In this document: positions 25,912 to 61,614 of the stretch, piece after piece
Position numbering within the stretch: the stretch's first letter is position 1
How the letters are laid out: each line of letters opens with the position of its first letter
Origin: Candidatus Bathyarchaeia archaeon
Lineage (GTDB): Archaea; Thermoproteota; Bathyarchaeia; Bathyarchaeales; Bathycorpusculaceae
NCBI GenBank assembly: GCA_049521795.1
Contig: JBEKOM010000004.1
Coordinates: forward strand, 81,261 to 145,260
Length of the DNA: 64,000 bases
Direction: 5' to 3'
Notes under the pieces: model-generated
Told to the model about the DNA's origin: nothing
The model's input: only the letters and a program-made list of their open reading frames with translations
Database searches by the model: none
Position numbers and translations under genes: made by a program

Positions 25912-26479
25912 GAACAGTCACACTCGACCATCCACGGTTGCTTTCTGATTCTTAAATAAGTTGCGGACACCGCTATCGATCCCAGTTGGACAGTGATAGC
26001 TTTGACTGTTCAAGGCGACGCCGTCCTCCTCTTCTTGAGGATAATGAGCTTTGGACGCGCAATTCCAAGTGAGGGCGATAAGGTTTCCATAATTCTTATT
26101 TGCGTACAAGCGCACAGAGTACATTGGGCTGGCGAGTCGGTGTGTGGCTTTCGAGCCTCGACGAGAGAGGCTTGAGGAAACTCCGCCCACAAGTAGAGTT
26201 GCAGCGTCCGCAAGGACGCAAGGTGAGAACCTTGGCTCCAGAGCAGAAACGAAACGTCCGCTCAGCAAGTGACGGTGATGCATGTTAAGTTGTTGAGGAT
26301 GCTGAGTGCGAAGCGATGAAACGGCTGACCTGCAAGTGGAAAGGGCAAGCAGACGCTGATGAAGAGTCTACCGGAAGCGCGGGTAGCCCGATTAGCCGAA
26401 TGCCACAAAGAACAAAAGGCGGGTTACGACCAACACGCCAGCTCTACAAGCAACCCGCCACCCCGACAACGTAACTGAC

Positions 26480-27370
26480 ATGAATAAGAACGGCATCCTT
26501 GCCCAATTCTTGATCCATTGTCAAAAAACTGCCTTGTCCGAAGAAACCATCAACACCAAATACAAAGTTCTCAGAGTAATGCTCACTAATAACGTCAACC
26601 TAAACGACTCTGACCAAGTTAAGATTTTCATTCACAACCGCAAACAATGGAGTAACGGACACAAAAGCATAGCCGTATTTGCCTATGATGAATACTGCAA
26701 AATGAAAGAAATCCAATGGACTCCGCCAGAATATCCCAAAAACGAGACTCTACCATTCGTTCCAACTGAAAAAGAAATAGACGCACTCATAAACGGAACA
26801 AGTACAAAAGTATCCATTACACTGCAAGCACTAAAAGAAACAGCGTTCCGTATCGGCGAACTCTGGAGATGTAAATGGACAGACATCGACGAAGAAAAAT
26901 CAACCCTGAAATGTAATCAGCCCGAAAAGAAATGTGCTCCAAGGGAAGTGCGAATCTCAAGTAAATTGATCGCAAGATTCAACCTTCTACCAAAAACCAA
27001 CGAGTATATATTCGGTAAAACGCGCATAAGTGCAACTCGAACAACTTTCTGCAACCAACGTAATAGCCTCGCCAGAAAACTCAACAACCCAAGACTCAAA
27101 CAAATACATTTTCATACCTTTAGACACTACCACGCCACTAGACTCTACAATGAAACAAAAAGTCTTATAGAAGTACAAGCTCGCCTTGGACATCGAAACA
27201 TAAACTCAACCATGGTCCATACTCATATTGTACAATTCGATGAAGAGAGCCAAAACTATCATCATGCAATAGCTCGCAATGAAAAGGAAGCTGGCGAACT
27301 AATAGACAACGGATGGACGTACATCTGCACAACCCCACAGAATGTAATGATGTTCCGAAAACGCAAATAG
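26480..27370 (+). mobile_element. Tyrosine recombinase/integrase, probably inactive (His at the catalytic Tyr position)
   Basis: FRIGE, HTFRH, LGH motifs; STMVHTH where STxxYTH is expected; A/C-rich composition unlike the core genes. Confidence 0.9.
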
Positions 27371-27472
27371 CAACAACCTCCCCCTTTTTTATTACCAACA
27401 CAAAGCGCGCAAAGCTTCTTAAATCAAACCAAACAAACGAATGAAAGAATGTGCTAAGCAAGAGACAGAGAT

Positions 27473-29293: not shown

Positions 29294-29812
29294 GAGTCAA
29301 AGCCAAACCAACCGCACAATAAGCATTTCCGCCTGTCGCGCTCGCATCACGCTCGCGCTCCCACCCACAAAAACTCAAAACAATAACTAGCAGACGCTTA
29401 TCAGGTAAGGATAAGACTTTGCCCTCAGACTGTGCAGTTTTCTCGTCCCCCCTGTTTTTTTCAGTAACGTTTTTGGTAATGTTGTGTGGTAACAAGTCTT
29501 GAAGAAGCGGACAGGCGTGGGGAACAAGACTTCAGCTCTACACCGTAACGAACCAGCACTACTATCCTAATAGCGTTTTTTTCCTAAGCATTCCATTCTA
29601 GATCTCTTCATGGTTTTCTTGGCTGTACTCTCTATTGTCCGCTTCCACCCTGACGCTAAGGGGTCCGATTCTTGCAAGTGGCGGTAGGATATGAGACAGC
29701 AATTGCTCTGCACTTAGTGGGCGAAGTGTACCATTCAGACTGATCTGCGTCCAATCAGTCTTTTCTTTGCGATATTTCTGTGTCCAGCCGTGTTTGGTCG
29801 TGCGCGCGTGCT

Positions 29813-30184
29813 ATGGTTCAGATTCCGAGAATGAGACATGGAAGCAAACAGACAATTGAAACATTGATTAATGAAGAGGCTTACTTGTTTGCGAAGTTTC
29901 TGAGATGTGAACGAGAAACATGGGTTCCAAGAATAGTGAGCCTTCAAGGAAACATGGCTACTATCAGCACAAACCTCGGAACGTTGACAGGCACTGTTAC
30001 CAGCATAAACAGCACGGTCGCTACGATCCAAACAAGCCTCGGAACTCTTGAAGTCACTGATCAAGGAGTCAAAAGCTCGTCGGACACAACAGGAAACTAC
30101 TCCTTAGCCGCATCAGCCCTTTCAATCATCAGCATAATAATTCTGCTTGCCGTCGCAATTCAAGTGTTCAGAAAACATAAGTAA
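29813..30184 (+). pseudogene. Chimeric remnant: Cas1-like C-terminus fused to the C-terminus of a membrane-anchored surface protein
   Basis: IPRMRHGSKQTIETLINEEAYLFAKFLR..W.PRI resembles the end of archaeal solo Cas1 (from recall); followed by ATI.T.LGTL repeats, TM helix and RKHK. Confidence 0.55.
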
Positions 30185-30409: not shown

Positions 30410-31264
30410 CTATGTCTTGCCTTTTGCAACGAAGATTGCAAGATGTGCAAGACGATGACGCTTGACCTTGCGGAAGTAACGGGATAACAAAGATTCAGCA
30501 AATGCGTAGTCAAGTTTGGTCTTATCCTCTTCCAAGACTTCGTGTTCCACTTTCTCAACAAATTCCCCCATCGTTAAGGGGTAATTGTCCTTGTTCGGAT
30601 GAGAATAAGGAACGATGAACGCGAGACTTCCGTCCTTCTTCAAAACACGGTGTAACTCTTTCAGGGCGCGGTGGACATTTTCGGGTTCGCCATGCACTCT
30701 CACGGCATCAACAAAGTTATCCTTTAGGGATATGTTTTCAACAGGGGTATCAAGAACAATGAGGTTTGCGCATTCGATGCTCAGCTTCACGGACTTGGGC
30801 TTGACCAAGTAGATTTTTCCATCCTCAACCACGTTGCCTAAGGATGATATCATCCAATCATAGAAGACTTTAGGTGCAACCACCAAGATTGTGTCGCCTC
30901 TGCCAACTTGCGAATCGAGCAATCGTTGCAGTTTTCGAATAGCACTCTTCTCAGGAGGAAGTTTCGACAAATACTGCATGTACTTGACATGAATAGTTTT
31001 GACTGCTTCCTTCAGCTCTTGACCCAGTTGATTCGTACCTTTCTTGCCGAGCCTGTACACCTTCCTTTCAGGCCCAAGGGCGCTTTTCATTCGGGTAGCC
31101 TCCAGATAGCCCTCTGTCTCCATCTCAGTGAGCACTCTATAGAGGTAGCTGATATTCGGCCTGAAGTCTCTCGCTGCCAATTGTTTTTGGACCTCATAGC
31201 CGTGCATTTCTGCGGTGCCAAGCATCTCTACAATCGTCTTCTTCAGATAGTCTTTGTGCATCAA
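30410..31264 (-). CDS. PadR-family regulator fused to a methyltransferase-like domain
   Basis: MHGYEV, YLYRVL..ME.EGYL, GPERKVYRL; C-terminal LKELHRVLKKDG. Confidence 0.8.
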   Translation of the reverse strand: MMHKDYLKKTIVEMLGTAEMHGYEVQKQLAARDFRPNISYLYRVLTEMETEGYLEATRMKSALGPERKVYRLGKKGTNQLGQELKEAVKTIHVKYMQYLSKLPPEKSAIRKLQRLLDSQVGRGDTILVVAPKVFYDWMISSLGNVVEDGKIYLVKPKSVKLSIECANLIVLDTPVENISLKDNFVDAVRVHGEPENVHRALKELHRVLKKDGSLAFIVPYSHPNKDNYPLTMGEFVEKVEHEVLEEDKTKLDYAFAESLLSRYFRKVKRHRLAHLAIFVAKGKT

Positions 31265-38665: not shown

Positions 38666-38817
38666 GCGCGCTGGCTTGTCCCTAAATTCGAAAAAAAAAG
38701 TAACTGAAAGCATATACATTTCGCATATACGTTTTGCATATACAGTTGACGAGCATTGTTGAAAACGGTGAGGCTGTTCACGTCGGCTGCCGAGCTGCGT
38801 GGACTGTTCAAGTGCGC
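38666..38817 (+). repeat. Conserved ~150-bp noncoding element, copy 1
   Basis: GCATATAC at 38710, 38723, 38736, then GAGCATTGTTGAAAACGGTGAGGCTG...GGACTGTTCAAGTGCGC. Confidence 0.85.
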
Positions 38818-38879
38818 AATGAGTCGATAGACTCAACAAAAAACGCACGCTGAGAATGAACAATGCCCAACGATTGAGG

Positions 38880-51532: not shown

Positions 51533-51762
51533 AGCCTTCCTGAAACCTCTGTACGTATCTGGATCACCGCGCTATTTTATACCAATGTGTGGTACTGGTC
51601 AGCCTAGAAATTAGTACGGTCAAAGACGAGCGCTAGGTTGTAGCGCGCGATGCTCGTGGGTAATAAGCGCGCGCTATAATCTACGTGACGATTGATGTTT
51701 TGTATGATGGTTAGAATTGGTGAGCGTGCGCGCATAGTGTCATGTAGACTTCATGATCATGG

Positions 51763-52038
51763 CTAAGGTTGGGCAACCGATGTTGCCTTTTTTTGTTGCT
51801 TGTCCGAATGTCCTTTAAGGAGCGATGTGACTATGCCAAATACTCCGACGATGAAAAGAATTATGCCACCCCATACTAACCCTATAGCCACGTCATAAGT
51901 CAATGTGTGACCAGCAGAAAACCATTTACTTAGATCAGAAAATACTCCCATTCCACCAATTATCCAACCGCAGATCCAAAAAATAATCCCAACCGCGATT
52001 ACCCAAATACTGGCAATCAGATATTTATTCATACACAT
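51763..52038 (-). CDS. Small membrane protein
   Basis: Two hydrophobic helices. Confidence 0.6.
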   Translation of the reverse strand: MCMNKYLIASIWVIAVGIIFWICGWIIGGMGVFSDLSKWFSAGHTLTYDVAIGLVWGGIILFIVGVFGIVTSLLKGHSDKQQKKATSVAQP

Positions 52039-52205
52039 CTGCGACCTGAAGATTATACCATCTAGTTATCGTGTTGGAATATAATTCTTTGCCTTAAATA
52101 CACCTGTAAGATAAAACTTTACGCCCAAACCCAAACCCACACACACAAAACATTTCAGCCTATGATTTTGCGGAAAAGTTATAGCTGAACTGCTCGCGCT
52201 AGCGC

Positions 52206-52235
52206 GCTGCCTTGTCCCTATATAACGTGTTGAAG
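52206..52235 (+). repeat. 30-bp direct repeat, copy 1
   Basis: GCTGCCTTGTCCCTATATAACGTGTTGAAG; 28/30 identical to 53932-53961. Confidence 0.88.
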
Positions 52236-52286
52236 GCTTTCGCAAACATTTATAGTCTGAAAACGATATTTTGATATGGGCAAATC

Positions 52287-53852
52287 ATGGTCGACGACTT
52301 TTTCTTTGGTTTTGCTGCTCATGCTCACACCAGAAATGAATTGGAAACGGTCGAAGAGAAGGAAAGAGAGCTTAGAAGAAAGAATAGCCCCCAAGAAGCC
52401 CAAAGACTGACAGAGCTAATTCTCAACAAGATCGAAAGAGACATGAAGGAAAACGGTTGCGGTCTTGAAGACGCGAAGCTCTTGCTTCTGTACTCGAGTT
52501 ACAGGGGTGAACCTGAAGAGAAGGACCGATCTATATGCGAATCAATACTCAGGACTATCGAGGAAAAATTCAAGGGACATACTGCACCGTGCGGGCTTCG
52601 CCTGATTGGACATACGACTGCCGGCGAGTTGGAAAACGAAGATTTGGTTCTGAACCAGGTTTCAGGAATTGGATACAATGGTATGTCTCTCATGGTTTTG
52701 ACGAGTAACCTCCCCTTTGGTGTAGGGCGAACGTGGGGTCTCCGAACTGAGGAAGAGGCATTGGAACAAGGGCGAGAAATGGCTCGCGACGCATGGTCAG
52801 ATTTTTGTCAACAGACAGGGATCAGGGAGCAAATGCACAAGAGCAGGACTCTTCACGTGTTGGCGCAGGGGATGACTGGTGAAGGACCTGGATACGAGCA
52901 CTTCCTGTCGGAGGGAATCGCCAGTTTCATGGGCGGCGCACGAGAGGCAAGAATAATGAGTGTAATAGGAGGAAACACGGGCGACGGTTTGCTCGCCTTG
53001 CTATTCCATCAATTCTTCGGAAAGGTAGGGGAACAAGCCCAGCTTAGAATCCTGGATAAAGAAGCTGTCTGCGCCCTCATTCCCAACCTCTCTGAACCCT
53101 CGATAGGTCTCGACATCAGTGCCCACAAGAGAATCGGGCGACCTTACACATTCCACTTCGACCCAGAGAAGGAACCACGCTATATGTACGTGAAACGTAT
53201 TGATAACGAAGATCCATGTGAAGCCTATGCAAAGGCAATTTACGAAAATGAAGCTCGAACAGCGGCAGAAAAAGGTTTACCCCTGACTATCACTGAAAAA
53301 GGTCTTCTTGAAGCATTGCGCCAACCGATGGCGTTTATCCCTTCACATCCAACGATAACATATTACGCTTTTTCTTTTGACTTTGGGAACTATTCCCTCA
53401 TCGGACCCATATGCACCGAGGGGCAGAATCTGAAACTTCAGCGTCCAATCAGAAGTTACACGCCAGAAGTGGCTGGCTACCTCGTTATGAGCGACCACAG
53501 CAAGGTTCCCAAAGGGGCTCGCAACATGTTAAACATGCTGAGAACGGATAGGGGCTTCAGCAAAGGAGACGCAACTGTTATCGTCTCTTGTCTTAGTCGA
53601 AGGCAGTCTGAGCTACTGGCAGGGTGCAAATCGGGAACCGAAGCTGAAATACTGAAAGAGGGGACATCTTCTACCCAGCTGATTGGATTCTTGGCATACG
53701 GAGAGATTTATTTCACTCAATTACTCCAAGAGCCTTACGTGTGGAACGGCAGCTGCTGGGGACTAACCTTTCACTCCACTTCAAGAGAAAAGAAACAGCT
53801 TAAGCCTGAAGGAGAACTTGGAATCAAGGGCTGGATAAAAGGAGAAAGATAA
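52287..53852 (+). CDS. FIST-domain sensory protein
   Basis: LIGHTTAGE, IGG..GD, SC..R, GF.AYGEI...N motifs of FIST N/C domains. Confidence 0.75.
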   Translation: MVDDFFFGFAAHAHTRNELETVEEKERELRRKNSPQEAQRLTELILNKIERDMKENGCGLEDAKLLLLYSSYRGEPEEKDRSICESILRTIEEKFKGHTAPCGLRLIGHTTAGELENEDLVLNQVSGIGYNGMSLMVLTSNLPFGVGRTWGLRTEEEALEQGREMARDAWSDFCQQTGIREQMHKSRTLHVLAQGMTGEGPGYEHFLSEGIASFMGGAREARIMSVIGGNTGDGLLALLFHQFFGKVGEQAQLRILDKEAVCALIPNLSEPSIGLDISAHKRIGRPYTFHFDPEKEPRYMYVKRIDNEDPCEAYAKAIYENEARTAAEKGLPLTITEKGLLEALRQPMAFIPSHPTITYYAFSFDFGNYSLIGPICTEGQNLKLQRPIRSYTPEVAGYLVMSDHSKVPKGARNMLNMLRTDRGFSKGDATVIVSCLSRRQSELLAGCKSGTEAEILKEGTSSTQLIGFLAYGEIYFTQLLQEPYVWNGSCWGLTFHSTSREKKQLKPEGELGIKGWIKGER

Positions 53853-53931
53853 AACCTAAACTAGTTTTAGCTCGCGCTAATCAATCAGTTCTTCCTCAGT
53901 ACATCTGTGTGCTGTAATATAACACGCGGCA

Positions 53932-53961
53932 GCTGCCTTGTCCCGATATTACGTGTTGAAG
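53932..53961 (+). repeat. 30-bp direct repeat, copy 2 (overlaps transposase 3' end)
   Basis: GCTGCCTTGTCCCGATATTACGTGTTGAAG. Confidence 0.88.
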
Positions 53962-54397
53962 TATGTTGGTGAGACTGTCTTGTCGGGTCTTCTGATGTTT
54001 TCTGCTGCTTCTCTGTTTAAGACCAAGCAGAACAGGCTGTAGAGAGCGTAGGACGCGATGTTTCTCAAGCCTCTGACCTTGTTGACGGCTAGGCTCCACT
54101 GCGTCTTTAGGAAGCTGTAGACGGCTTCTATGTGCGGTCTCTTGTGGTACTCTTTTTTCTGGTCTTCCGGCCCGTAGGTTCTGAACTTCTTGTCCACTCT
54201 GAGCACGCCTTTGACGCCGCGCTTCTGGTTTGAGGGGTAAGGAATAACCACTTCGTCGACGACGTCCCTGATTTTTTCGTCGCTGTACTGGCTGTCGGCT
54301 ATCACGCTTCTCAGTTTGGCGGCTGACCGTTTGAGGATTAGCTTCGTCTTCCCAAGCATGCTTGGCGAGTGCTTCTTCTCGTTCTCGTTGGCCGGAG
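53949..54397 (-). mobile_element. C-terminal fragment of a DDE transposase (IS5/IS1182-like)
   Basis: PANENE, IADSQYS, Y.KR..IE...S.LK, VRGL motifs; transposase-like sequence stops at GCGCGCGC 54397. Confidence 0.8.
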
Positions 54398-54544
54398 CGC
54401 GCGCTATGTTATCCAAGTTCAAACTAGCCAAAATGGAGCAAGAACTCTCATTCTTCTCCATTCTAGACTTTTTACCCAATCAAATACAAATTGCTTAAGC
54501 AAGAAAATGTCAACCCAAATAATCTAGCAATAGGCTGGCGCGCG

Positions 54545-55228
54545 CTATCGTCTTTGAACATAGATGTAATTTGTCTTGTGCCCTATTCTTCGCCATCCAT
54601 CGTACAAATACGCGTATACCGTGTAGGGCCCCGTTTCCTTGGGCGTGAACTCGGCTGAGTAACGGGCTTCCTCTCCGGCGGAAAGTTCCTTTATTTCTGT
54701 TGTGGCCTGCTTTTCAGATTTTCCTGATGGGGGTTCCACCCAGAATTCCAGTTTCAATCCCGTACCTTTCCTCAGGCCCTTGACGGTTGCCTCGGCCGAG
54801 AGGGTCTTTCCAATTTGCGTATATGGATGCGAAAGCACCAGTACGCGTTCGAGTTCCGCTTTTTCCTCGCTTACGTAGATGCGAGTCCAGCCGGATTCCC
54901 ACCAGAAGTAGTTTTTTTCTTCATGTGCCATGATGGTGGCGTATACATCAGCTGACCCTAACGCATTAATCCGGAAAACCAGTTCGACCTCTTCATTTGG
55001 CTTTAACGCTTTAAGGTATTGTCCAGCTCCAAACGCATACCATGTTCCATAGACGGTTAGGTGATATGTATCCAAAGAGTGCAATTGTATGTCGACTCCT
55101 GTAAGAGTGTCCCTTGATGTGTTTTTCAGTTTCAATGTTACCCAGCTAGTTCCTTTCTCCACTGTCGTAGGATTCAACTCGTACTCCATGGGGTACTTAT
55201 ATCTCGACATTGTTGCCGTCATTTTCAA
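54545..55228 (-). CDS. Hypothetical protein with two beta-sandwich (Ig/CARDB-like) domains
   Basis: L.P.EE, L.AGEE..Y..F.P..G.Y.V patterns. Confidence 0.65.
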   Translation of the reverse strand: MKMTATMSRYKYPMEYELNPTTVEKGTSWVTLKLKNTSRDTLTGVDIQLHSLDTYHLTVYGTWYAFGAGQYLKALKPNEEVELVFRINALGSADVYATIMAHEEKNYFWWESGWTRIYVSEEKAELERVLVLSHPYTQIGKTLSAEATVKGLRKGTGLKLEFWVEPPSGKSEKQATTEIKELSAGEEARYSAEFTPKETGPYTVYAYLYDGWRRIGHKTNYIYVQRR

Positions 55229-55601
55229 TTCACCGTTATCCCATACTGTACTACATGTGTATGCACTTTTAAGATTTTTTTGTTTTATGTGTTTATGTAT
55301 TTAACGCGCGCGGTTCATTATGAGGGGGTAAGTTTTTGAGCGAATTTTACCCCTCGTAGCATCAACCGACTATCCTATCCTTATCCTGTTCCATTAATGT
55401 CCATTGATGTATCAGCGCGCGCGTGGTTGCTAAAGCATTGAACCGAGAATCTGAAGAATTCTAACAGAAAGTCAGAGAAGTTTGTAACGTATCTGAGAGA
55501 GAAAAGAACAAGTAACTTTTACCATGGGGTGATAGAAAAAGCGGAAAACTTGCAGCACTTATCGCATTTTAGTTCTTTTCAGAACGGTGTTTAGAAACTC
55601 A

Positions 55602-55775
55602 CTAATATTCTTTCAGCTTTCTTTTCGCTTTACCGATTTCTTCTCTGGCTTTTCCTTCGGCTTGTTCGACCTTGCCTTTTAACTGTTCTTTCCTGTTTCC
55701 CCTTATTATCCCCACATCTTCACGGACTTTTCCTTTAATTTGCTTTTCTTTGCCCTTTCTTTCATCTCTACTCAT
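55602..55775 (-). CDS. csbD: CsbD-family stress protein
   Basis: MSRDERKGKEKQIKGKVREDVG...GKVEQAEGKAREEIG; below the ORF-track size cutoff. Confidence 0.75.
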   Translation of the reverse strand: MSRDERKGKEKQIKGKVREDVGIIRGNRKEQLKGKVEQAEGKAREEIGKAKRKLKEY

Positions 55776-55950
55776 GACAAAATTCTCCTAATGATAATGG
55801 TGTTTGAGCAGTTAATAACCTTTAGCTCGGTCTCACCTCGAGGGAGTAAGCGCGCGCGATGTCCGTGGGCTGAAGTCGTAAAGAATATATGGATATCGGT
55901 TGTTCGATATCGGGAAGTGCGTGTTACGCAATTGTCTTCGTCATTCGTAG

Positions 55951-56946
55951 GTGACCGGTGTGGTTGAGGGCCTTGTGATCGAAACGAGGGAGCTTAGGAA
56001 GACTTTCGTTTCTAAAGAGAGAGGTGGAAAGAAGCAGGTTGAAGCGGTTAAGGGCATAGACCTCGCTGTGAGGAGAGGGGAGATTTTTGGTTTTCTCGGT
56101 CCGAACGGCGCTGGTAAGTCTACGACGCAGAGGATGCTTTCCACTCTTCTGTGTCCTACTGGTGGAGAGGCGAAGATACTGGGGTATGACTTGGCGGAGG
56201 AGCAGGAGGAGATTAGGCAGAACGTCGGGTACGTGAGCCAAGCCGGCGGGGCAGACTTGGCTTCTACGGGTCTTGAGAATCTGGTCTTGCAGGCTCAGCT
56301 GTACGGTTTGGACGTTTTGACCGCGAAGAAATACGCGGCCGAGTTTGCGGAGCGTTTCCAGATGAACTCGTTTGTTAATAGGCCTGCCTCGTCCTACTCG
56401 GGTGGCCAGAAACGCCGCTTGGACGTTGCGCTCGGGATGATTCATCATCCGCGGCTGCTTCTGCTCGATGAACCGACGTCGGGTCTTGACCCGCAGAGCA
56501 GAGCGTACCTGTGGGAGCAGATTAGGAAGCTGAAGGCTGAGGGGGTGACCGTTTTCTTGACGACCCAGTACATGGATGAGGCCGACAAGCTTTGCGACAG
56601 AATAGCGATCATAGATAACGGGGTGATCGTCGTAACCGGGACGCCGGAGGAGTTGAAGGGCAACGTCGGCGGCGACACGATCGTGTTCGGTTTTCCCATG
56701 GAGGAGGTCGCCCGCAAGGCCGAAGCTGTGTTGACGGAGAACACTCAGCTGGAGAAGATTCACTCGGTGAACAGTTCCGTGCTTCTGTACGCTAAGGACG
56801 GGGAGAGAATGATGCCTGACCTTCTAAGGTCGCTGGATGCAAAACGCTTAGACGTGCAAAGCATCATGTTGTCCAGGCCGAGTCTGGATGACGTTTTCTT
56901 GAAGTACACTGGCCGTTCACTGAGGGAGGATGAGAGGGAAAAATGA
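55951..56946 (+). CDS. DrrA-like ABC exporter ATP-binding protein
   Basis: GPNGAGKST, YSGGQKRR, LDEPTSGLDPQSR, PSLDDVFL. Confidence 0.93.
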   Translation: MTGVVEGLVIETRELRKTFVSKERGGKKQVEAVKGIDLAVRRGEIFGFLGPNGAGKSTTQRMLSTLLCPTGGEAKILGYDLAEEQEEIRQNVGYVSQAGGADLASTGLENLVLQAQLYGLDVLTAKKYAAEFAERFQMNSFVNRPASSYSGGQKRRLDVALGMIHHPRLLLLDEPTSGLDPQSRAYLWEQIRKLKAEGVTVFLTTQYMDEADKLCDRIAIIDNGVIVVTGTPEELKGNVGGDTIVFGFPMEEVARKAEAVLTENTQLEKIHSVNSSVLLYAKDGERMMPDLLRSLDAKRLDVQSIMLSRPSLDDVFLKYTGRSLREDEREK

Positions 56947-61009: not shown

Positions 61010-61414
61010 GTGAAAAGGAAATACGATTTTGACGCGTTAGCGCTGCAATACGGGTTCAGCGCCAAAGAAATAGAAAAAGTGTGCCGAATCTCGGATCTGC
61101 TGGAGGACATCTCAGCTGTGAAATTCCTCTCAGACCGCCTATCACTTTACGGCGGAACAGCTCTCACATTCATTTACTCACCAGAAATTCTGCGATTGTC
61201 CATAGACCTTGACTTCAACTACCGACACACGGACAATGCAGACTGGGGGGAGGTCCGAGAGAAAATCGACGAACGGCTGAAAGATCTAATCTACCGACAA
61301 GAATACGACCAGGCGGACATCGCCATAAACGCAAGCTATCCGCTCACACGACTTACTGTCAGATACGTCAATGCTCATGGCTTTGCGGAACGTTCTCAGC
61401 ATAAAAACCGATGA
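61010..61414 (+). pseudogene. AbiEii nucleotidyltransferase toxin, C-terminally truncated
   Basis: IEKV, L.GGTAL...Y...RLS.DLDFNY; only 134 aa. Confidence 0.75.
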
Positions 61415-61614
61415 TAGCAGTTTTGGCACAGATATCGTCGCACTTATCCAAACAATGAGCGCGCGCAATAGGTTACGGCCAACACGCTAGCCCTTGCTGA
61501 AACTTGTCTAGAGGATATTTGTCTTTGTAGAATGCGAATTCAGAGCTTTAGAGTGTTTGTAGTAAGAGTTAAGTGTAACTTGTGTGTTATTTTGTTATGG
61601 ATAAGGGATACTTC

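Follow-up and report, generated by a model that had tools for sequence, protein, structure and literature searches.

What cuts a transposase gene short at a palindrome of eight nucleotides? The question is raised by a window of 64,000 nucleotides (the whole stretch of DNA analysed here, to which all plain coordinates refer) from a genome of the Bathyarchaeia, abundant uncultured archaea of sediment and peat in which genome change is little known. A first-pass annotation of this DNA had held that transposase-like sequence starts right at a GC motif, with an AT-rich unrelated piece on the far side up to the next such motif, and that these motifs should be seen as junctions of recombination, not as regulatory sites. 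The features around the break are as follows; runs are stretches of alternating GC.

53934 to 54398, minus strand: IS remnant, from blastn against 80 related loci, Pfam DDE_Tnp_1 and protein alignment
53934 to 53944, plus strand: terminal inverted repeat (TIR) at the right end of the IS, reading TGCCTTGTCCC on the plus strand
54397 to 54404, no strand: palindrome A-GCGCGCGC-T where the IS is truncated and inside which IS homology stops
54405 to 54537, no strand: unique 133-bp piece, 34.6% G+C, between two palindromes
54538 to 54545, no strand: GCGCGCGC palindrome, sharing letters with the stop codon of the following gene
54544 to 55311, minus strand: gene module encoding a 227-aa protein that matches CARDB weakly
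55312 to 55413, no strand: repeat module of ~100 bp between the runs 55306-55311 and 55415-55422
52202 to 52235, plus strand: GCGCGC and a solo 30-bp IS end, 93% identical to 53932-53961
51643 to 51648, no strand: run at the left edge of a 4.2-kb segment (51642-55857)
55850 to 55857, no strand: run at the right edge of the same segment

The remnant comprises the rightmost 465 bp of an element of ~1.1 kb (about IS positions 635-1100) and carries ~149 C-terminal transposase codons (53949-54398) together with the right end of the IS. A blastn search against 80 related loci aligned it at 75-83% identity with boundaries at 53932 and 54398. Among the best 40 DNA alignments to these loci, 31 end at 54398, three at 54399 and one at 54400, while the remaining five stop at 54392-54394 and none extends beyond 54400, bearing in mind that BLAST ends at 75-93% identity can be off by a few bases. 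Homology ends falling within the palindrome (54398-54400) thus make up 35/40, and the predicted coincidence of break and motif, to within a few bp, is borne out.

At the protein level, the ORF 53949-54479 (minus strand) reads ...NIARAPANENEKKH...ADSQYSDEK...RPHIEAVYSFLK..., and its residues 29-154 match positions 56-200 of the 200-position Pfam DDE_Tnp_1 profile (E 1.3e-7). The palindrome supplies codons 26-28 (A-R-A, GCG CGC GCT), and the APANxNEK block conserved in full-length relatives begins at A28. Codons 1-27 (54399-54479, minus strand) are not transposase; here the frame enters from the 133-bp piece and the palindrome. Upstream of the APAN block, where relatives have DUF772 and ~130-180 aa, the window copy has no part of the transposase, and its second TIR is missing, leaving the right TIR alone with a degenerate outer flank (GC, then TGCCGCGTG on the IS strand). 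The window copy cannot encode an active enzyme.

The neighbouring DNA is likewise partitioned by palindromes. No match to 54405-54537 was found in the rest of the genome, in 1.295 Mb of a same-genus genome (G001) or in the 80 related loci, so that the far side is indeed AT-rich and unrelated to the sequences compared. The gene module that follows is 89-90% identical in two places in one genome (G009) and in another (G005), its homology stopping at the runs at 54538 and 55306, and in place of the entire 4.2-kb segment G001 carries a different 466 bp. An Rfam search of the whole window returned RNase P RNA at 26132-26438 alone, with nothing at the remnant; a Phage_integrase-family gene lies at 26480-27370.

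Because the genome under study (G000) is metagenome-assembled, in 69 contigs, such joints might be chimeras made by the assembler at low-complexity GC words. We regard this as scarcely credible: a word of 8-10 bp is shorter than assembler word sizes, the same runs occupy orthologous places in G001, which is a single contig, and the IS flanks described below agree among 51 copies drawn from many independent assemblies. Among public assemblies, one contig from run X1 (54281-54667, zero differences) spans both palindromes, although X1 may be the window's source sample; contigs from X2 and X3 also span 54538-54545, so that with X1 three sequencing runs from three studies support that site. Over the stretches covered by four public contig sets there was no joint across the remnant, the sole one listed lying elsewhere, at 56447-56552.

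We therefore take the break as real and turn to the element that was broken. A library search gave 253 relatives of the transposase, the full-length ones 316-335 aa long; the full-length relative at locus L009, a 307-aa ORF, covers positions 7-200 of the DDE_Tnp_1 profile, and G124 also has an intact copy. Of the NCBIfam IS-family models, none scored above its curated cut-off: L009 reached 80.6 of 270 bits for IS1182 and 65.5 of 140 for IS5_4, and a second relative (P0050) 151.4 of 270 and 89.6 of 140. The window feature is best explained as a dead remnant of an IS5/IS1182-like IS with a DUF772 + DDE_Tnp_1 transposase, and the element is extinct in this genome. Intact members in other Bathyarchaeia have the TIRs TGGCTTGTCCC...GGGACAAGGCA, 1088-1103 bp apart in the main group, and stand inside (GC)4-type palindromes. 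After removal of five false pairs from 56 TIR pairs, 51 full copies were retained, of which 48 have GCGC on both flanks and 37 GCGCGC. Near-identical copies within one genome (L012, L013, L016, L028 and L075) vary at flank positions 5-6, GCGC alone being constant, and L049 has GCATGC on both sides.

These flanks suggest that the IS duplicates the central GCGC as a 4-bp target site; as GCGC is a palindrome, a direct repeat is here indistinguishable from an extended inverted repeat. For one miniature derivative (MITE) in G000 the empty site is preserved in G001 as TAAC-GCGCGCGC-TAAT. Both flanks of L016, a young full-length copy in G143, were collinear in 0/20 relatives, leaving no empty site for comparison. 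A 2-bp TA duplication outside GCGCGC was considered and dropped, since TA on both left and right occurs in about 4/51 copies, no more than chance. The window itself holds a truncated MITE:

38666 to 38826, plus strand: GCGCGC and a truncated copy of a ~170-bp MITE that shares the IS ends

What is new here is that an IS family and its miniature derivatives sit within these palindromes. This changes how a run beside an IS end is to be read: a family that normally resides inside palindromes will have a run at its ends through target choice, not rearrangement. Within G000 the IS copies are cut at runs at 5/6 ends, and a second remnant (C13:17101-17714) has runs at all four breaks; outside this genome the figure is 4/38 fragment ends (3/18 in one set, by our reading, and 1/20 in another). 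A GCGC-like seed had also been anticipated in the intact gene. The closest intact copy (L051) reads ...GTATGC/GCTCC... at the break (slash), so that a native GCGC straddles it, while most other copies read ...GCGCTTTT/GCTTC....

The second gene said to start at such a motif is a Cas1-like remnant:

29802 to 29944, plus strand: GCGCGCG and a remnant of the Cas1 C-terminal tail, ~aa 13-55 of the ORF 29780-30184

The GCGCGCG (29802-29808) codes for residues 8-10 of this ORF, and homology to the copies in G001 begins at residue 9-10, so the position of the break holds. Residues 13-55 match C10:61985-62113 (63% identity, E 1e-12), which lies directly downstream of a Pfam Cas_Cas1 fragment (C10:61693-61890). 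The remnant is small, and the ORFs of the window (including 29735-30184) have no Pfam match to Cas_Cas1 at E up to 10; a PDB sequence search of the region gave weak coiled-coil matches alone (best E 0.0039, a phage tail-needle protein). Only the tail beyond the Cas_Cas1 domain survives. Fragments of a multi-copy Cas1 are scattered through these genomes.

Whether the palindromes are joints was then asked independently of the transposase, by comparing G000 with the first 1.295 Mb (about 55%) of G001. In the window, 8/14 ends of large collinear blocks common to the two genomes lie within 3 nt of a run. Genome-wide, 64/440 block ends lie within 5 nt of a run of (GC)3 or longer, against 3.7 +/- 1.7 (maximum 9 in 200) for locally shifted controls, a 17-fold enrichment. 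Certain runs occupy positions at which intact genes are found in the other genome, and so mark deletion scars: within C2:162986-164632 of G000 lie a complete ChrB_C domain and an MFS gene of 425 aa, where G001 has ACGCGCGCTG replacing 1645 bp. There are cases, too, in which nothing but a run is left at the point where two genes were cut. A deletion that kept its run is anchored at C8:841 and at the following feature of the window, whose 170 bp are absent from G001 with the run retained as (GC)5:

61289 to 61466, plus strand: truncated AbiEii gene, 170 bp, and the run 61459-61466, from comparison with G001

Together these three tests support the claim that the motifs are recombination junctions, and show (GC)3-5 palindromes to be sites of loss, gain and exchange of DNA in this genus. 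Runs mark a minority of events: a run lies at a boundary of 24/67 simple indels and 42/99 replacements, and at no boundary of the other 43/67 and 57/99.

The abundance and placement of the palindrome bear on what it might be. The window contains 16 copies of GCGCGCGC (mean 1.26 and maximum 5 in 100 shuffles) and the genome 417, ~14-fold over the roughly 30 expected from our own base-composition estimate, with GGCCGGCC occurring 17 times. Copies are clustered in variable islands, and 348/417 (83%) lie outside ORFs of at least 100 aa, leaving 69/417 within the long ORFs that make up 82% of the genome. The runs are 6-13 bp long, and the flank logo of the 417 sites shows no conservation past 2 nt on each side. 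Such a distribution could be that of regulatory or terminator-like intergenic signals, beside which decayed IS ends have come to lie by coincidence, both being intergenic. Consistent with this, 24 copies lie within 5 nt past a stop codon and one near a start, and the flanking letters seen most often, T at -2 (35% of copies) and A at -1 (46%), give TAG on both strands. We nevertheless consider coincidence very improbable. A regulatory role is unlikely because only 10-15% of spacers carry a run, alike for tandem (113/1084), convergent (55/369) and divergent (39/384) arrangements; moreover, no palindrome occurs in the first 27 kb of the window, a stretch conserved with G001, runs are found inside cut genes, and the enrichment at block ends would go unexplained.

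If the palindromes are joints, no dedicated enzyme need be involved. Z-DNA-forming and palindromic tracts provoke deletions, and GC palindromes might be intrinsically fragile through hairpins, cruciforms, Z-DNA or stalled replication, with repair losing or capturing DNA. Breaks do fall at either edge of the run, which stayed behind in 5 simple indels and disappeared along with the segment in 8, and run lengths drift mainly in 2-nt steps (among nine differences at orthologous sites, six of 2 nt, two of 3 nt and one of 7 nt). Fragility leaves unaccounted for the excess of runs over expectation, their presence at scars whose undeleted allele has none, and a range of 0 to 121 copies among genomes of the same order; we judge it an unlikely explanation.

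The spread of the palindrome also bears on whether palindromes and joints alike are the product of the IS and MITE family. Insertion would duplicate GCGC and excision would leave GCGC+GCGC; were resident copies to recombine, or the DNA next to them to be deleted, before they were excised, a run would end up between unrelated DNA. In favour of this are the GCGC flanks of nearly all full copies, the native GCGC across the break in L051, and a type-2 MITE in G001 with GCGCGC on both sides where the corresponding G000 site has no run. At C2:141251, too, there is a native GCGC at the left break, and this GCGC with a further four letters, GCGC, makes up the scar. The IS clade is also found in 5/8 of the run-rich genomes (at least 12 palindrome copies; 8/121 genomes of the order, in families f1, f6, f7 and f12 and lineages g1, g34, g39, g42, g52 and g68) compared with 12/113 others. 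Against it, three of the eight run-rich genomes have no match to the clade (G138, 100% complete; G141, 98%; G045, 67%), 20/931 runs adjoin a TIR-like 11-mer, and in most of the scar-type events listed the long allele lacks GCGC at both breakpoints, with C2:141251 an exception at its left break. None of the nine run-length differences is of 4 nt, and genomes with active or intact copies are run-poor, for which reasons the idea that runs are IS footprints was set aside: AGCGCGCGCT occurs 92 times in G000 and 114 in G001, and 3, 4, 2 and 0 times in G143, G146, G147 and G155, G143 having five IS copies at ~100% identity, while G063 and G071 have intact copies and 0 AGCGCGCGCT. Because genomes with active copies hold 0-4 AGCGCGCGCT and this one 92, the IS is probably a specialist targeting the palindromes rather than their maker, and we think an origin of runs and joints in the IS improbable. 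Two other candidates were rejected. For a restriction-modification system, a C5 methylase (PF00145) was found in 2/8 run-rich and 17/113 other genomes, hence no methylase link; for a REP/RAYT system, a search of G000 (98.75% complete) with PF01797 at E up to 0.01 gave no Y1 transposase.

The account that we favour, with somewhat better than even confidence in the whole, combines a dead IS remnant, palindromes that act as joints and an agent specific to the palindrome, with the IS as a specialist drawn to them. At the locus in question, the left 634 bp of the IS have been replaced by unrelated DNA at a joint carrying A-GCGCGCGC-T. The palindrome may repeatedly suffer a break at its edge and be joined to new DNA, being kept or rebuilt meanwhile. 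The putative agent would be a palindrome-specific nuclease or recombinase restricted to some lineages of the Bathyarchaeia, and the IS family would home to palindromes without having caused them. A further step, which we offer tentatively and think rather doubtful, is that some Bathyarchaeia carry an undescribed cut-and-join system acting on a minimal 8-bp (GC)4 site, which deletes, inserts and shuffles modules, can cut through genes, retains or restores the palindrome wherever it joins DNA and has drawn to itself a specialist IS/MITE family. Its enzyme could be the multi-copy Cas1, some relative of the DDE transposase that seeks GCGC, or a nuclease or recombinase as yet unrecognised.

Looking at what follows from these results, the occurrence of a short palindrome at so many indels and replacements makes a flexible genome readable from sequence alone, and the IS family is the first concrete protein tied to these palindromes. 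A transposase with an 8-bp palindromic target could serve site-directed insertion. Should a dedicated system make the runs, it would be a new gene-cassette or genome-editing mechanism in archaea; if it cuts and joins at (GC)4, it would be a cassette system with the smallest known site. We found no published account of the palindrome-junction pattern in the literature searched on archaea and Bathyarchaeota.

Several known systems invite comparison. HIP1 of cyanobacteria is a highly iterated 8-bp palindrome, and the present one resembles it in being far above chance in some lineages only; HIP-type words fill coding sequence, whereas 83% of the copies here lie outside long ORFs, in variable islands, with no C5 methylase link. 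Mobile GC clusters of yeast mitochondria and deletions at Z-DNA or palindromes also tie short GC-rich palindromic tracts to indels and recombination breaks; these are longer elements or belong to other kinds of genome, and here there is no sign of the run itself moving. The IS family shares with IS5 and IS1182 the DUF772 + DDE_Tnp_1 architecture of a transposase of about 307-340 aa and short TIRs (TG...CA), with a putative short palindromic target duplication, but it reaches no NCBIfam model at cut-off and its target is a (GC)4 palindrome. As in the integrons and CALINs, archaeal ones included, treated by Ghaly et al. (2022, PMC9668308), a short site recurs between unrelated single modules, and a given module appears in different contexts; the main text of that paper contains neither 'Bathyarchae' nor 'GCGC'. 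In contrast to integrons, modules occur here in either orientation, many of them are non-coding or only parts of genes, and neither the flank logo of the 417 sites nor Rfam in the region shows an attC-like structured site. The REP sequence (PMC3733652) is an imperfect stem-loop of 20-40 bp with a conserved head and GTAG/CGTC tags; the runs here are pure alternating GC of 6-13 bp, lack conservation past 2 nt, come with no Y1 (RAYT) transposase match in G000, occur also at deletion scars in an archaeal host, and are targeted by an IS of the DUF772 + DDE_Tnp_1 type. REP and BIME elements are nevertheless described by Tobes and Pareja (2006, PMC1525189) as extragenic palindromes of high copy number, hot spots of genome plasticity and specific targets of particular IS elements (ISPa11, ISPpu9/10, ISPsy8, ISRm19/22), and the palindrome of these archaea is likewise high-copy (417), extragenic (348/417), linked to plasticity and host to an inserting IS of its own.

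The window (C4:81261-145260 of G000, the genome that carries it; 2.44 Mb, 69 contigs, 48.6% G+C) contains the palindrome GCGCGCGC 16 times, against 1.26 in shuffled sequence. We call such alternating (GC)3-5 palindromes runs. The features at the break point are:

53934-54398 (-), remnant of an insertion sequence (IS)
53949-54479 (-), ORF with a Pfam DDE_Tnp_1 match
54397-54404, palindrome at which the IS remnant is cut
54538-54545, second palindrome

The DDE_Tnp_1 match starts at residue 29 of the ORF and covers profile positions 56-200 of 200, and the palindrome itself supplies the codons for residues 26-28 (A-R-A). The transposase had 253 relatives among 1.84 billion representative proteins, the full-length ones measuring 316-335 aa; in the protein alignment their conserved APANxNEK block begins at A28 of the query, and the query sequence before A28 is unrelated. 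In this library most close relatives are fragments, 50-280 aa long and ending at many different positions, and some of them may have been cut at contig ends. In species-representative genomes 185 relatives were confirmed, nearly all from Bathyarchaeia or Bathyarchaeota, and 80 loci were kept. The first-pass annotation had held that the transposase is cut exactly at the motif, and alignment to full IS copies bears this out: homology ends inside the palindrome, with 35 of the best 40 alignments stopping at 54398-54400 and none further.

Table. End of DNA homology in the best 40 window alignments to the 80 loci
End position; alignments
54392-54394; 5
54398; 31
54399; 3
54400; 1
beyond 54400; 0

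The opposite end lies at 53932 in 37 of these 40, two bases outside the IS end, and the remnant therefore represents IS positions ~635-1100. As for a GCGC-like seed at the break in the intact gene, L051, the closest intact copy, reads ...TGCGTATGC|GCTCCAGCC..., so that the break may fall within a native GCGC there, and most other intact copies read ...TGCGCTTTT|GCTTCTGCC.... Past the palindrome, the AT-rich piece described as unrelated is indeed unique, with 34.6% G+C over 133 bp. In public sequencing data, seen as contigs and not raw reads, one Logan contig of X1 (which may be the sample the window came from) spans both palindromes with zero differences, and contigs of X2 and X3 span the second.

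Intact IS copies are ~1090-1100 bp long with ends TGGCTTGTCCC...GGGACAAGGCA and carry one ORF (307 aa in L009) with DUF772 and DDE_Tnp_1 domains; no NCBIfam IS-family model scored above cut-off for the transposase. From 56 pairs of terminal inverted repeats (TIRs), five of unusual length whose second end was poor were dropped as false (L006, L027, L033, L036, L071). Among the 51 copies kept, GCGC stands at the left flank in 49, at the right flank in 49 and at both in 48, and GCGCGC at both in 37. Flank positions 5-6 vary among near-identical copies of the same genome (e.g. ACGCGC|IS|GCGCGT in L013); in L049 each side carries GCATGC. The flanking sequences fit insertion into a (GC)4-like octamer, whose central GCGC would be duplicated; they fall short of proof of that duplication, since inverting GCGC gives GCGC again and since L049 has its GCATGC flanks.

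Miniature derivatives (MITEs) of ~170 bp, with IS ends and flanks in common, occur in at least 12 copies in G000. They have ends TGSCTTGTCCC, internal GCATATAC repeats and flanks AGCGCG(Y)...(R)CGCGCT, and include:

window 38672-~38826
G000 C1:551126-551295
G000 C3:175764-175932
G000 C11:33131-33300
others in G000

For the MITE at C10:33813-33940, the single-contig, same-genus genome G001 has an empty site reading TAAC-GCGCGCGC-TAAT. G001 also holds a second IS type (C1:389080-390200, part of L117; ends ATGCGTGTTCC...GGAACACACAT) with a frameshifted transposase, TA-GCGCGC on both flanks and its own MITEs, whose GCGC-flanked ends number 10 in G000 and, over 1.295 Mb, 17 in G001.

The single further IS remnant in G000, at C13:17101-17714, has runs at all its breaks:

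left, 46 bp lost from the start, left TIR included, (GC)5 adjoining the remainder
interior, IS positions 496-920 deleted, CGCGCGCG at the joint
right, a run in place of the final 10 bp of the right TIR

Together with the window break and a 30-bp solo IS end (52206-52235, inner end without a run), 5 of 6 truncation ends in G000 adjoin a run. In other genomes this holds for 3 of 18 internal ends (L014, L020, L028), the 18 being our reading of 28 partial rows with contig ends and poorly aligned outer parts set aside, and for 1 of 20 IS ends fetched from G143, G146, G147 and G155. Cutting of IS copies at runs is the exception outside G000, not the rule.

Beyond the IS, block ends in the window and genome-wide, and deletion scars that carry runs, uphold the first-pass reading of the motifs as recombination junctions. 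The first 27 kb of the window align near-continuously with G001 and contain zero octamers; from there on, large collinear blocks have 14 ends, 8 of them no more than 3 nt from a run (29239, 40052, 44387, 51641, 55858, 58947, 61459, 63183). The IS remnant sits inside a 4.2-kb run-bounded segment, 51642-55857, whose G001 counterpart is a different 466 bp, and within it the similarity of individual modules to other genomes likewise stops at runs. A gene module at 54544-55311 recurs with 89-90% identity in G005 and, twice, in G009; a ~100-bp repeat between two runs at 55312-55413, with no Rfam match, has copies in G000 (C10, C7, C11), G002, G008, G004 and G030. Contigs from other samples diverge from the window at 51641, 52190/52200, 53932, 54398, 54404 and 54544, among others.

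Several further features of the window were seen:

51643-51660 and 55850-55869, direct repeat GCGCGC(GC)-GATGYYCGTGGG on both sides of the 4.2-kb segment
52148-52201 and 53797-53868, 40-55-bp stretches, each directly followed by the word GCTCGCGCTA, found again, 77-100% identical, in most of the genus's genomes
26132-26438, RNase P RNA, then a Phage_integrase-family gene (26480-27370) and the first GCGCGC (27405); the run-rich, poorly conserved zone begins around 26132-27410
30410-31264 (-), ORF in which PadR is joined to the second half of Methyltransf_11 (profile 46-95 of 95), which may be a further fusion of gene pieces

Genome-wide, G000 was compared with one relative, the first 1.295 Mb (55%) of G001, with BLAST ends imprecise by a few bases. 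A (GC)3+ run lay within 5 nt of 64 of 440 block ends, against 3.7 ± 1.7 in locally shifted controls (maximum 9 in 200), and a (GC)4+ run at 35, against 1.8 ± 1.3. A run was found within 5 nt of a boundary in 59 of 166 events, and at least one boundary was at a run in 42 of 99 replacements.

Table. Simple indels (n=67) sorted by a run within 8 nt
Run at short-allele junction; long-allele ends with run; indels
yes; none; 9 (one is the MITE)
yes; one; 5
yes; both; 1
no; one; 8
no; both; 1
no; none; 43

G000 carries, at C2:162986-164632, a ChrB_C domain that is complete (aa 59-191; the break falls after aa 109), together with an MFS transporter of 425 aa (broken at aa 407); neither break has a GCGC in G000, and in G001 ACGCGCGCTG stands instead of the 1645 bp. 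Polarity is opposite for a 370-aa CBS-domain ORF of G001, which is cut in G000 with GCGCGC at that place. At the window's AbiEii gene, 170 bp to the left of the run at 61459 are absent from G001, which keeps the run, as (GC)5 where the window has (GC)4. Runs are thus found where DNA has been deleted, and a run can also be the anchor of a deletion.

The Cas1-like remnant said to start just after GCGCGCG was correct in substance: a Cas1 C-terminal tail, without a Pfam match, follows 29802-29808. It is 63% identical to C10:61985-62113, which comes after a Cas_Cas1 fragment that starts directly after a (GC)5 run. By tblastn, five tail copies occur in G000 besides the window's own and six in 1.295 Mb of G001:

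window 29816-29944
G000 C5:75453, C10:61985, C11:103216, C7:65568, C7:718
G001, six places

Cas_Cas1 fragments in the genus are C-terminal pieces in 11 of 13 cases, with differing start points, and the only intact Cas1 genes seen there are one in G004 and two in G002. The tail copies could be casposon or CRISPR-locus decay.

Across G000, GCGCGCGC occurs 417 times versus 17 for GGCCGGCC; we estimate a chance expectation of ~30 from base composition. The commonest flanks are (T/G)A-run-T(A/C), with no conservation further out, and copies form islands (46 in 43 kb of C13). Outside ORFs of at least 100 aa, which make up 82% of the genome, lie 348 of the 417; other GC-rich palindromes (6-mers GGCGCC, GCCGGC, ACGCGT, TGCGCA, AGCGCT; 4-mers GGCC, CCGG) are 73-87% inside such ORFs. 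With genes approximated by long ORFs, a palindrome is present in 113 of 1084 spacers of the tandem type, 55 of 369 of the convergent and 39 of 384 of the divergent type; 24 palindromes come no more than 5 nt after a stop codon, and one is near a start. This distribution is at odds with a general role as terminator or promoter, in agreement with the view that the motifs are not regulatory sites.

The IS family might itself make the palindromes. Its clade is found in 5 of the 8 run-rich genomes (at least 12 AGCGCGCGCT; 8 of 121 in the order, scattered over families f1, f6, f7 and f12) versus 12 of 113 others, which is a hint only because related genomes are not independent. However, G143, with five IS copies at ~100% identity, has only 3 AGCGCGCGCT, and its relatives G146, G147 and G155 have 4, 2 and 0, versus 92 in G000 and 114 in G001; G063 and G071 have intact, still GCGC(GC)-flanked copies and zero AGCGCGCGCT. 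Length differences at orthologous runs are 2 nt (six cases), 3 nt (two) or 7 nt (one), never 4 nt, and only 20 of 931 runs adjoin a TIR-like end. The IS family fits poorly as the maker of the palindromes and is probably not it; from the low counts in IS-bearing genomes, the run lengths and the TIR data, we read it as a specialist that would home to them. No Y1 transposase was found in G000, and C5 methylase showed no link with run-rich genomes. Alternating GC could be intrinsically fragile, the other main rival; we prefer the reading that a lineage-restricted nuclease or recombinase would act at the palindrome.

A literature search on these archaeal GC palindromes and on Bathyarchaeota IS found no paper describing the pattern. 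What is new here is a transposase family tied to GC-palindrome sites, deletion scars at runs with resolved polarity, and, as a negative result, that the IS probably does not make the palindromes. Archaeal integrons use structured attC sites, unlike the GC palindromes here, and the main text of that report mentions neither Bathyarchaeia nor GCGC (PMC9668308). Homing to REP elements is known for some bacterial IS (PMC1525189), and the IS described here, read as homing to palindromes, would resemble them.
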